Shown here piece by piece: positions 1 to 62,415 of a stretch of DNA of 64,000 nt. This stretch comes from Octopus sinensis (Eukaryota), in the NCBI RefSeq assembly GCF_006345805.1, contig NC_042997.1:10168001-10232000 (forward strand). The letters run 5' to 3'. The position numbers were made by a program, and so were the translations under genes. Within the stretch, counting starts at the first letter, position 1. Each line of letters starts with the position of its first letter. The notes below the pieces were generated by a model that did no database searches, was not told the origin of the DNA, and worked only from the letters and a program-made list of their open reading frames with translations.

Positions 1-249
1 GCATGGGCTATAAATGTTAGCAACAGCACTAGCGAAGATACCTTTCCCACGCCCAATGTTAATAGCGACAGCATCCACAACATCTGTAACAGTGGCAGCA
101 ACAGCAACAGCAACACCAACGGTCAGGGATAGCTACAGCGAAAACAACTACAGCGATATCGCCAAACATACAGCACCGTTGACTTTTCCAGTAACAGCAG
201 CGGCAGCAACATCAACCCCAAGCCCAGGGTCATCGGAAGATTCACCAGG

Positions 250-6527: not shown

Positions 6528-6582
<55 letters not shown>

Positions 6583-6586
6583 ATAT

Positions 6587-7592
6587 AAAACTTACTTGGA
6601 GAACAGAAAGGAAACGAAACGAAACGACGGGAGGGCGTTAGTCATGCAAATATTTAATAAAATAAAATATATGCATACATACATACATATATGTACGTAC
6701 CTACATCTACATGTATATATACATGCATATATAGATATATATACGCGAGTACAGGACACCACAAATAGACGTAGACCTCAACGAGAGACGAAAACGTAAA
6801 AACAAACATGGAAACTGACCTTTTTTAACAACGAAAAAACAGAGTACAGGACAAACAACACAAGGAAAATTCCCCTCATCAGCTGTACCTAGTTCGACTC
6901 CATGCGTGTTTCGAAGGTAAGGACAGAACACGACTCGTCGAACTAGCACTTCCTGCGAAAGAATTAAATAAAATTCCTTTGCAGAGGGGTAAAAACAAGG
7001 AAAGAAAAAAATGTGACAAAAACAGGACGTAAAAATAATACAAATAAAAATACGAATAAAAAACAAATACAAAAAAATACAGTACAAGAAATAAAAACAA
7101 ACAGGAAAACAAACAACGAGGCCCTTTTTTAGCCTAGACGAGGAAAAATTTAAGAGCGCAGGAAAAGAGCGTGTTTACTTGTAGGAGGCCGCCAGCGAAA
7201 GAAAGTTGGTCGACCCGGCTGTAAGAGAAATGAGGAGGAGTGAGAGGGAGAGAGATAGAGAGGAAAGGAAACCAGAAAGGGTGAAAAATAAGAAGGAGAG
7301 AGACAGGTTAAGAGGAAGACAGATAGGAAGGAAGGGAAGGTCAAGCAAAGGGTTATAGAGTTTCGCGTCATAATTATATATAAAAAACTTACTTGGAGAA
7401 CAGAAAGGAAACGAAATGAAACGACGCGAGGGCGCTCAGTCATGCAAATATTTAATAAATAAAATATATGCATACATACATACATATATGTACGTACCTA
7501 CATCACTCACGTATATATATTTATATATGCATGTATATATACATGTAGACGTAGGTACGTACATATAGGTATGTATGTATGCATATATTTAT

Positions 7593-7640: not shown

Positions 7641-7643
<3 letters not shown>

Positions 7644-7971
7644 CGCATGGCTCAGTGGTTAGAGCGTCGAGCTTAAGATCGTGAGGTTGTAAGCTCGAAT
7701 CCCGGACCGGGCTGCGTGTTGTGTTCTTGAGCAAGGCACTTTATTTTACGTTGCTCCAGTTCACTCAGCTGTAGAAATGAGTTGCGACGTCACTGGTGCC
7801 AAGCTGTATCGACCTTTGTCTTTCCCTTGGATAACACTGGTGGTGTGGAGAGGGGAAGCTGGTATGCATGGGCGACTGCTGGTCTTCCATAAACAACCTT
7901 GCCCAGACTTGTGTCTAGGAGGGTAACTTTCTAGGTGCAATCCCATGGTCATTCATGACCGAAGGGGGTCT
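7641..7971 (+). mobile_element. tRNA-derived SINE family C
   Basis: A box TGGCTCAGTGG, B-box-like GCTCGAATCC; full-length homolog at 62081-62415 (-). Confidence 0.85.
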
Positions 7972-17359: not shown

Positions 17360-18173
17360 TATATAATGGATGTACGTACGCATATATGTATGTATGTATT
17401 TATATAGATAATTTATTCAGAGAGTTTATCTCTCCACGATTTATTTGATTCATACGTAGACCAGTATCTTGAGGAGAGAAATCCTTTCATTTACAAAGGA
17501 AGATGATGGTCTCCCGGTGAAACGAATTATATATTGTAGAGATAAACTATATGAATAAATCATGTAACCCTGTGTGTATCTTACAATGCGTACAGCGCTT
17601 CAATCGTTGTGGTCCTGATTGTTTTTTTAAATTAGAGCTTATAGCATATATGAGTGTGTGTGTATACGTGTGTGTATGCTTGTGTGTGTGTATGTCTGTG
17701 CATGTGTCAGGGTGAAACAGGAATGAGAGAGAAAAAGAGAGATAGACAGACAGACAGAGAGAGACATTTATAATTCATATTCGAAGCCGAGGTTTCATTG
17801 AATCCCTAATTAGATTCTCGTCAAAATGTCATATAGAGTACTTTTCTCTGATTTATCTTAATATCTTGTAATATAAAAGGTATGGGAGGTGGGGGGTTGA
17901 CCGAATAGTTAGCGTTTCAGATAAAATGCTTGAATGTATTTTTCCTCCGTCTCGTTACGTTCTGAGTTTCAAATTCGAACGATGTCTTTGTTGGCCTTCA
18001 TACTTTCAAGTTCCGCAAAAGAATGTGACTGCAGTGGATCTCAATGATATCGATAAACTCACTAATTCGCCCCTCAAACTAACTGACCCTGTGGCTAAAT
18101 GAGAAACAATTACCTTAACATAAATTATTTATACACACACACACACACGCATACATATATACAAATATATATA

Positions 18174-18588
18174 TTTCTTTACTGCCCACAAGGGGCTAAA
18201 CATAGAGGAGACAAACAAGGACAGACGAAGGGATTGAGTCGATTATATCGCCCCCAGGGCGAAACTGGTACTTTATTTATCGACCCCAAAAGGATGAAAG
18301 GCAACGTTGACCTCGGCGGAATTTGAACTCAGAACGTAACGACAGACGAAATACGTATTTCTTTACTACCCACAAAGGACTAAACACAGAGGGTACAAAC
18401 AAGGAAAGACAAACGGATTAAGTCGATTACATCGACCCCAGTGCGTAACTGGTACTTATTTAATCGACCCCGACAGGATGAAAAGCAAAGTCGACCTCGG
18501 CAGAATTTGAACTCAGAACGTAACGACAGACGAAATACCGCTAAGCATTTTGCCCGGCGCGCTAACGTATCTGCCAGCTCGCCGCCTT
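18174..18588 (-). mobile_element. SINE family A, tandem/composite copy with two Tx1-like tails
   Basis: Head AGGCGGCGAGCTGGCAGA, core GTCGACTTTGCCTTTCATCC...GGGGTCGAT; body repeated after the AAAGAAATA|CGTATTTCGTC junction. Confidence 0.85.
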
Positions 18589-26842: not shown

Positions 26843-26939
26843 AACATCGTCCGTTTTCCGTCCCTGTGTTGTATACATTCGAGGCTTTCTTCCAAGGAAT
26901 CTAATGCGCTTGGCTTAGATTTCCCTTGGGGGTTGCCCA

Positions 26940-27090
26940 GATCGGAAAAAATCTCAAGATTAATCAGCCGAAATTGCGAAGATGATCCGGTTCTTGACTG
27001 ATGATTGAGGGCTTCGAATGTCCCGTCCGTGTTTTTTATGTCGTCTTCTAAATGTTTCACGTTATTGTCCCAGTTTGTATATTTTTTACT
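26940..27090 (+). mobile_element. Short TA-flanked repeat with GAAA...CTGATGA motifs
   Basis: Homologous to 36530-36654 (-). Confidence 0.55.
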
Positions 27091-28634: not shown

Positions 28635-28664
28635 ATAATAACAATTTGATAAATAAAACATATG

Positions 28665-28713
<49 letters not shown>

Positions 28714-28928
28714 ATATACCTATATCTATATGTATATATACATGCATATATGGGTACAGGACACCACAAATAAACGTAGAACAAAACGAGAAACGAAAAC
28801 ATAAAAACAAAACAAGGAAACGGACTTTTCTTTTAACAACGAAAAAACAGAGTACAAGACAACAACACAAGGAACATTCCCCTTCTTCAGCTGCTCCTGT
28901 TTTGATTCATTGCGTGTTTCGGAGGTAG
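28635..28928 (-). mobile_element. Truncated relative of the 6587-7595 element
   Basis: GTACAGGACACCACAAAT...AAAAAACAGAGTACA...CAAGGAA..TTCCCC shared. Confidence 0.7.
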
Positions 28929-31288: not shown

Positions 31289-31518
31289 AAGGCGGCGAGC
31301 TGGCAGAAACGTTAGCACGCCGGGCGAAATGCGTAGCCGTATTTCGTCTGCAGTTACGTTCTGAGTTCAAATTCCGCCGAGGTCGACTTTGCCTTTCATC
31401 CTTTCGGGGTCGATTAAATAAGTACCAGTTACGCACTGGAGTCGATATAATCGACTTAATCCGTTTGTCCTTGTTTGTCCTCTCTGTGTTTAGCCCTTTG
31501 TGGGTAGCAAAGAAATAG
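31289..31518 (+). mobile_element. SINE family A with Tx1-like tail
   Basis: Full head, core and TTTAGCCCTTTGTGGGTAGCAAAGAAATA tail. Confidence 0.88.
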
Positions 31519-36531: not shown

Positions 36532-36673
36532 AAAAAAATACAAACTGGGATAAGAACGCAAAACATTTAGAAGACGATACAAAAAACACGGACGGGACAT
36601 TCGAAGCCTTCAATCTTCAGTCAAGGACCGGATCATCCTCGCAATTTCGGCTGTATATATGTATGTATGTATG

Positions 36674-49363: not shown

Positions 49364-49391
49364 TATTATTATTAGTATTTTTATCATTATT

Positions 49392-49770
49392 AAAGCCGAC
49401 GATCTGGCAGAATCATTAGCATGCCGGTTGAAGTGCTTAGCGGCATTTCGTCCGTGTTTACCCTATGAGTTCAAATTCCACCGAAGTCGACTTAGCTTTT
49501 CAACATTTCGGGGTCGATAACATAAGTATCAGTTGAACACTGGGTTCGATGTTATCGACTTACTTCCATCCACGAAATTTCTGACCTTGTACCAAAAATT
49601 TGAAACAACTTAGGGCGGCGAGCTGGCAGAATCGTTAGCACGCTAGCAAAATACTTAGCGGCATGTCGTCCGTCGCTACGGCCGACATTTACCAGTTACG
49701 TACTGGGGTCGATGTAATTTACTAAACCCCCTCCCCCAGAATTTCGGGTCTTGTGCCTTTAGTAGAAAGG
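49392..49770 (+). mobile_element. Two tandem SINE family A copies after (TTA)n
   Basis: Heads at ~49392 and ~49612. Confidence 0.75.
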
Positions 49771-61391: not shown

Positions 61392-61790
61392 TAAGGCGGT
61401 GAGCAGGCAGAAACGTGAGCTGGCAGAAATGCTTAGCGGTATTTCGTCTGCCTTTACGTTCTGAGTTCAAATTCTGCCGAGGTCGACTTTGTCTTTCATC
61501 CTTTCGGGGTCGATTAAATAAGTACCAGTTACGTACTGGGATCGATATAATCGACTTAATCCGTTTGTCTGTCTTGTTTGTCCTCTCTATGTTTAGCCCC
61601 TTGTGGGTAGTAAAGAAATAGGTATTTCGTCTGCCTTTACGTTCTTAGTTCAAATTCCTCCGACGTCGGCTTTACCTTTCATGCTTTTGGGGTCAATAAA
61701 TTAAGTATTAGTTGTGTACTGGAATCGATTTAATCGATTGATCCCACTCCCCCCAAATTTTGGGTCTTGTGCCTAGAGTAGAAAAGAATA
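61392..61790 (+). mobile_element. Composite SINE family A (Tx1-tailed unit plus headless second body with the other tail type)
   Basis: Junction AAAGAAATA|GGTATTTCGTC at 61620. Confidence 0.85.
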
Positions 61791-62080: not shown

Positions 62081-62415
62081 AGACCTCCTTCGGTCATGAC
62101 TGACCATGGGATTGCACCTAGAAAGTTACCCTCCCAGGTACAAGTCCGTGCAAGGTTGTTTATGGAAGACCAACAGTCTACCATGCACACCGGCTTCCCC
62201 TTTCCACGCCACCGATGTTATCTAAGGGAAAGGCAAAGGCCGATACAGCTTGGCACCTGTGACGTCGCAACTCATTTCTACAGCTGAGTGAACTGAAGCA
62301 ACGTGAAATAAAGTGTCTTGCTCAAGAACACAACACACAGCCCGGTCCGGGATTCGAACTTATAAACTCACGATCGTAAGCTCGACGCTCTATCCATTGA
62401 GCCATGCGCCTTCAC
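62081..62415 (-). mobile_element. SINE family C
   Basis: Reverse complement of 7641-7971. Confidence 0.85.

Follow-up and report, generated by a model that had tools for sequence, protein, structure and literature searches.

We identified a hammerhead core in the tail of a retroelement of Octopus sinensis, in which the stem II 5' strand, the cleavage site, the GAAA strand and the CUGAUGA strand follow one another in this order. It lies on the minus strand of the 64,000-nucleotide stretch of genomic DNA analysed here (hereafter, the window). A four-way junction is predicted between A9 and G10.1, and, judging from sequence comparison, the RNA likely cuts after GUU (6927/6926). The evidence consists of the order of the sequence blocks, a pairing pattern that is kept across families, the retroelement context and a pile-up of the 5' ends of truncated copies at the predicted cut. 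In the 2.72 Gb genome, the exact pattern for the window's family matched 2250 times versus 0 times in the control, and two looser patterns yielded 573 matches (control 4) and 11,228 matches (control 116) from families termed C, E, F and G; the total of about 14,000 (120 in controls) counts pattern matches, not intact ribozymes.

Core and strand order of the window copy

An earlier note on this DNA had placed a permuted hammerhead at 6932-6872 of the minus strand. Its sequence, strand, coordinates and block order were all reproduced on re-reading: along the RNA, the site is followed by the GAAA strand and then by CUGAUGA, with helices that cross and are not nested. Stem I (CUGU/ACAG) and stem III (CGUGU/ACACG) stand as drawn, and the cut was placed at the same site. 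All core letters of a hammerhead were found, namely C3-A9 (CUGAnGA), G12-A14, A15.1-U16.1 and a nucleotide 17 other than G. When stems I and III were each required to reach 4 bp, a core in the order site/GAAA/CUGAnGA occurred once in the window; among locally shuffled windows, 2 of 200 contained one. We also agree that this is a non-circularly permuted hammerhead overlooked by nested searches. Rfam hammerhead models gave no match at 6800-7100 at E≤10, and no nested three-way junction was found there; over the whole window at E≤5, simple-repeat noise was obtained, with no hammerhead among the best 150 of 260 matches.

The site is GUU in 86 of 108 copies of the window's family. GUU sites are cleaved more slowly than GUC sites. 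The window copy departs from the family majority at 6948 (end of stem II) and 6887 (stem I), and an A was lost after the core. It is probably a weakened copy, and activity of this particular RNA appears rather doubtful, whereas for intact members of the family activity is predicted with good confidence.

Table 1. Positions of the ribozyme parts, listed along the RNA, and of related elements in the window
Feature	Position	Strand	Basis
Penelope-like insertion: ~800 bp unit and preceding direct partial repeat of its own 3' end	6578..7547	-	self-comparison
Whole ribozyme domain (a-h-II-ext-S-G-C-a')	6871..6989	-	
Helix a 5' strand CCCCU, partner of the strand after CUGAUGA	6985..6989	-	pair probability 0.93-0.94; U-A to G-C in 3/17 rows
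Hairpin h (CUGC...GCAG), directly between helix a and G10.1	6953..6984	-	2/4 pairs change on both sides
Stem II 5' strand GAAGU (family GAAGG), G6952 = G10.1	6948..6952	-	family comparison
Joining helix 5' strand, far ends of stems I and II (earlier 'competing hairpin')	6937..6946	-	6/10 pairs with two-sided change
Block S: CGUGU, U17 (6927), predicted cut 6927/6926, stem I strand CUGUCC	6921..6932	-	sequence, covariation, 5' ends
CGUGU, stem III strand	6932-6928	-	
U17, cleavage-site base	6927	-	
CUGU, stem I strand	6926-6923	-	
Link UUA (3 nt) between blocks S and G	6920-6918	-	
Block G: stem II 3' strand CCUUC (C11.1 = 6913), GAA, ACACG	6905..6917	-	sequence, covariation
CCUUC, strand preceding GAAA	6917-6913	-	
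GAA-ACACG, GAA and stem III strand	6912-6905	-	
Joining helix 3' strand GUCGAACUAG	6889..6898	-	sequence, covariation
Stem I strand GUACAG (family GGACAG) and core CUGAUGA	6876..6888	-	sequence
ACAG, stem I strand	6886-6883	-	
CUGAUGA, catalytic core strand	6882-6876	-	
Helix a 3' strand (family AGGGG; A lost in window copy)	6871..6875	-	copy comparison, pair probability
GGGG, strand after CUGAUGA	6875-6872	-	
Decayed family E copy, same architecture, stem III damaged	26880..27020	+	
Copy of the sister subfamily lacking the site block, 5'-truncated a few nt past the predicted cut	28644..28927	-	
Family E copy starting ~11 nt after the predicted cut	36560..36653	-	

Stem II and the additional helices

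Stem II had been drawn as GGGG/CUUC, with GGGG directly after CUGAUGA. This proved wrong: the helix had a pair probability of 0.0 when the upstream 60 nt were added (nested folding only). The strand before GAAA pairs with GAAGU, 20 nt upstream of the reported motif, and the strand after CUGAUGA pairs with CCCCU farther upstream, with a hairpin in between. The RNA begins about 57 nt farther upstream (at 6989) than in the earlier note, whose proposed transcript, 6865-6950, lacks G10.1 (6952) and both extra helices. The hairpin regarded there as a competitor of the hammerhead is a component of the fold, joining the far ends of stems I and II. The elements follow each other as helix a, hairpin h, stem II 5' strand, joining helix, block S, a 3-nt link, block G, joining helix, the stem I strand with CUGAUGA, and a'. 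G10.1 is not joined to A9 directly or through 1-2 nt: it lies 76 nt upstream, and helices a and h intervene. Folding of 6862-6995 yielded helix a, hairpin h and stem III (z -3.6).

Occurrence of the upstream stem II was assessed in 126 distinct cores, many of them close relatives of one another, which were gathered from loci by stems I and III and the core letters alone, blind to stem II. An upstream stem II of at least 5 bp was present in 107 of these cores and a full junction in 80; when the upstream 95 nt were shuffled 30 times, the corresponding values were 9.8 on average (maximum 17) and 2.8 (maximum 7). Across eight families or subfamilies, each represented by one real copy, helices I, II, III, h and a paired at 40/40, 40/40, 32/32, 32/32 and 32/32, and the previously drawn stem II at 23/32 at best. 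Because the parser favours pairing and clean representatives were picked, this 100% pairing is partly by construction, and the shuffle control on the 126 cores is the fairer test. Up to five pair types were seen per position, and 4-36 of 40,320 label permutations did equally well. The letters of stem II differ by family (GAAGG/CCUUC, GACAC/GUGUC, GGCUG/CAGCC and GGCCC/GGGCC), and G10.1-C11.1 was present in all eight representatives. CUGAnGA, GAAA, G10.1-C11.1 and U16.1-A15.1 were constant across families whose helices differ, a constancy partly imposed by the search patterns.

Among 17 copies of the window's family, 94.2% of cells were paired, two-sided change was found in 11 of 34 pairs, and none of 500 shuffles was as good. 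These changes fall in helices a, h, the joining helix, I and III; stem II had no two-sided change in the 17 copies, and its covariation was seen only across families. The family comparison that had been proposed, with pseudoknots allowed, upheld stems I and III by two-sided change, but not stem II as drawn. Helices I, II and III surround the core and show covariation, as in a hammerhead, with stem II completed by an upstream strand.

A plain type SGC hammerhead, with stem II GGGG/CUUC after CUGAUGA and the upstream helices serving as an off-switch, would agree with the 3-nt link and with the extra nucleotide after A9, which is common in Penelope-like hammerheads according to PMC4209133. A downstream stem II reaching 4 bp is possible in 59 of the 126 cores, 58 of them within the window's family; however, not a single base pair of it is possible in families E, F and G, and it is weak in family C. 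In addition, GGGG/CCUUC is the weakest of the duplexes (-2.2 kcal/mol, versus -4.6 for GAAGG/CCUUC and -7.4 for CCCCU/AGGGG), and the base after A9 covaries with helix a in the window's family. We therefore consider this arrangement highly improbable.

With the upstream stem II, helices a and h are predicted to sit between A9 and G10.1 as a four-way junction, whose links are 0-2 nt in the eight representatives. Stems II, core and III would stack as in every hammerhead, and helices a and h may stack across them, clamping the broken A9-G10.1 backbone. A difficulty is that the joining helix meets stem I with a link of 0-2 nt and must fold back on stem III. Such a fold-back is not obviously possible in a monomer, and a similar problem is raised in PMC10085705. 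The strain of these tight links, as well as the common occurrence of tandem units, could point to the same fold acting as a swapped dimer, with helices formed between two tandem units or molecules, or with the help of a protein; Penelope-like hammerheads are described as often dimeric (PMC4209133) or in need of an element protein (PMC11167929). Nevertheless, stem III is not palindromic, every helix is complete within 115-135 nt, and cleavage is documented for type-SGC monomers whose joining helix is similar (PMC10085705). The nested type III hammerhead in tandem dimers that had been offered as an alternative fold would also require a downstream stem II over two units, which cannot form in the other families. 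An intermolecular or protein-assisted ribozyme thus appears unlikely.

Host elements and truncated copies

The motif sits in a non-coding insertion within (TA)n, in which 7375-7547 matches 6578-6743 at 88%. Relatives of this element occur as tandem units spaced 777-838 bp and as inverted truncated copies or pairs. Partial tandems and inverted copies are the layout described for Penelope-like elements (PMC8557442), and the partial tandem pseudo-LTR, inverted truncated copies and (TA)n target of the window's family are of Naiad type. The unit contains no ORF, however, whereas Naiads encode an N-terminal GIY-YIG and a C-terminal RT. No autonomous partner was detected with two protein queries: 0 of 86 motifs of the window's family had a Naiad-type RT match within 1.5 kb upstream, and 0 of 72 family E motifs had an RT match in 1.5 kb flanks. 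A splice-donor-like CCAA/GTAAG is present at 7396-7388 (minus strand) near the unit boundary, and a pyrimidine tract closing in CAG at 7230-7219 (minus strand); together they resemble the 5' intron of Penelope-like elements, and no spliced joint for them was found in sequencing-run contigs. A 331-nt repeat with a tRNA-like start abuts the element at 7641-7971 and forms an inverted pair, 91% alike, with 62081-62411. Dispersed short interspersed repeats, unrelated to the ribozyme, were found at 18172-18588, 31289-31478, 49388-49607 and 61427-61737.

In 18 of 20 loci, family F follows an ORF with RT, zinc knuckle and endonuclease at a distance of 305-462 bp. This ORF matched RVT_1 (E 2e-22), its best PDB match was an R2 protein, and a CCHC knuckle and restriction-like endonuclease motifs were recognized by eye; a homologue search with the ORF end gave a single match, to an unnamed protein. 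The clade of this element may be HERO. This probable R2-group non-LTR family is abundant (L247:1400-3646, minus strand, and L227-L246; 8585 first-look candidates), and its 3' UTR holds the compact ribozyme of family F, about 110 nt from the end of the element. Family C was located 0.7-1.4 kb after a C-terminal RT remnant (RVT_1 E 1e-4, below the cut-off) and agrees, on inspection by eye, with the 3' UTR in the published consensus of the Octopus Naiad, Naiad_Ovul; an RT at the C-terminal end of the ORF and a consensus-like 3' UTR are what is expected of a Naiad. Since family C belongs to Naiad Penelope-like elements and family F probably to R2-group non-LTR elements, the motif appears to be common to two retroelement classes.

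Naiad_Ovul was annotated as HHR_half_core by its authors (PMC8557442). File S5 of that paper was sampled by motif (59 of 62 CTGATGA places and places 4-13 of three other heptamers) and read by eye, not computed; bivalve, spider and chordate Naiads gave no clear assignment. The same S-G-C wiring with an upstream stem II was recognized there by eye in Naiads of Beroe, Clytia, Acropora, Morbakka, Pomphorhynchus and Darwinula (Naiad_Bfor, Naiad-3_Chem, three Acropora records, Naiad-2_Movir, Naiad_Plae and Naiad-4_Dst; names from the following header and file order), and in the Acropora records the strand preceding GAAA pairs upstream of S and the one following CUGAUGA still farther upstream, with a hairpin in between. 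The 3' UTRs in the Naiad records of Nippostrongylus, Pristionchus, Ascaris and one more nematode read, by eye in the same file, as type CSG hammerheads, with the order C-S-G and an ordinary stem II.

A scan of viral and metagenome sequences with one pattern gave at least 4 cores among 245 loci. The metagenome contig L580 carries a complete example in other letters, with an 8-bp helix a, and two of the cores are likely due to chance. L559 (Ga0105243_10000443, a 43-kb contig) is a candidate only, with an S-G-C core and a 6-bp stem I but without a clear stem II partner. Other motifs were also encountered: a minimal type I hammerhead of the ordinary kind, belonging to another element, at L141:790-880 (plus strand), just upstream of a tandem of the window's family, and, near 1145 on the minus strand of L011, a CUGAUGA-bearing repeat whose core is paired with its own 13-nt inverted copy. 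On balance, we lean towards a so far undescribed four-block permutation whose catalytic strand, detached from stem II, is held by a four-way junction; it would self-cleave in vivo, supply the ribozyme missing from many Naiads of five or more animal phyla and have passed to a retrotransposon of the unrelated R2 group.

Within the window, the relative reported at 28880-28928 does exist, but it is 5'-truncated and lacks the cleavage-site block, and its 'improved' stem II CCUCC is a private variant of 1 in 108 copies. A CTGCT predicted in the site block of its subfamily was rejected: the letters there are CTGCCC/GGGCAG, and AGCAG, as in the window, is the variant of a minority. Two truncated copies of the window (5' ends 28925 and 36653) begin just past the predicted cut.

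Reverse transcription of cut RNA should leave genomic copies that start at the cut, and 5' ends were accordingly mapped against natural full copies. For the window's family, the first 91 distinct copies in order on one contig were collected with an anchor 19-mer about 150 nt downstream, and 88 were aligned. Their ends lie at -1, 0, 1, 1, 2, 2, 4, 5, 6, 6, 7, 7, 7, 8, 9, 13 and 13, and at 15-19. Sixteen of 65 copies at risk start 0..14 nt past the predicted cut (p 2e-9 versus uniform spread), with 8 further ends in 15..29, one in each of the two bins preceding the cut and a single end between -53 and -2. In family E (78 of 91 copies aligned), 19 of 68 start at +2 to +12 (p 1e-8). A further 7 ends lie within the 15 nt preceding the cut, and the hot spot overlaps TTAAT; microhomology with (TA)n may contribute to this pile-up. 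By eye, few copies of family C are truncated at the cut, and family F has no pile-up there (0 of 13 copies).

Stalling of the polymerase, or microhomology, at a catalytically dead or structural RNA signal (protein binding or RT stop) could also produce such ends, as the TTAAT of family E, the 8 ends at +15..+19 of the window's family at the edge of stems II/III and the lack of a pile-up in family F would allow. We give this very little credence: the core letters stay constant while the helices of families differ (in part a product of the search patterns), and in the window's family the edge is sharp at -1/0, within CUGUCC; this strand is not rich in A and T, and copying of the downstream strands leaves it unpaired. 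That the core letters are kept in thousands of copies and that many shortened copies begin at the cut suggest that the RNA likely self-cleaves in living cells. Through cleavage, read-through transcripts of the 0.7-0.84 kb tandem units would be reduced to monomers; copies starting at the cut would derive from reverse-transcribed cut RNA, and longer ones from RNA that stayed uncut or was joined again.

Relation to known hammerheads and elements

No published description of this wiring was found in the open literature searched; supplementary HRIMA alignments could contain similar cases. If the proposed wiring is correct, it goes beyond the six permutations thought possible in PMC10085705, moves non-circular permutations from obscure metatranscriptomes to high-copy animal genomes and would explain the 'half cores' in Naiads that PMC8557442 describes as lacking hammerheads. 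The sharp edge of 5' ends would provide genomic evidence on whether Penelope-like hammerheads cut RNA that is reverse transcribed. A point against the proposed role of cleavage is that the hammerhead of an anole Penelope-like element required protein and that insertion in vitro did not depend on this ribozyme (PMC11167929). The open A9/G10.1 junction with two free helices would offer a new attachment place for aptamers.

The closest relative is type SGC (HRIMA-1; Eckert et al. 2023, PMC10085705), whose S-G-C order was validated in vitro and is described there from metatranscriptomes only. Both share the order S, G and C with crossing helices, a link of about 3 nt from stem I to stem II, a full core and a helix that connects stems I and II at their other ends (6946-6937/6898-6889 here; like helix 'I', an equivalence we infer from the text of the paper). 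In type SGC, however, stem II directly follows CUGAnGA, and the permutation scheme of PMC10085705 assumes that block C is uninterrupted. In the octopus RNA block C is not intact: the stem II strand lies upstream of S, and helices a and h are inserted. The motif is also found in animal chromosomes, with more than 10^4 pattern matches. It is a real, probably self-cleaving hammerhead that falls outside type SGC as defined. In topology it keeps the cyclic order shared by types SGC/CSG/GCS, with the opening placed inside block C, between A9 and G10.1. Type CSG, known from two metagenome sequences (PMC10085705), has the same cyclic block order, but is opened between G and C and has no four-way junction.

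Like type I minimal hammerheads (PMC4209133; bioRxiv 10.64898/2026.07.22.740005), the motif occupies a pseudo-LTR or 3' tail position in tandem units, and like those of Penelope-like elements, in which one extra nucleotide is common there (PMC4209133), it tolerates change at the A9/G10.1 step. In contrast, the type I minimal hammerheads of Penelope-like elements and non-LTR retrozymes are described as nested (C-G-S), with a short palindromic stem III, and dimer-dependent. The pseudoknot (PK) hammerhead of PDB 8YDC (PMC11300833) likewise has an extra helix and a pseudoknot around an unchanged core, although its A9-G10.1-loop-C11.1 is continuous and loop II forms the pseudoknot. Finally, Naiads (Craig et al. 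2021, PMC8557442) also have (TA)n targets, partial tandems and inverted truncated copies. Unlike them, the window's family lacks an ORF, and the flanks searched gave no autonomous partner for it. Naiads were published as lacking canonical hammerheads (PMC8557442), whereas the motif described here ends Naiad elements.
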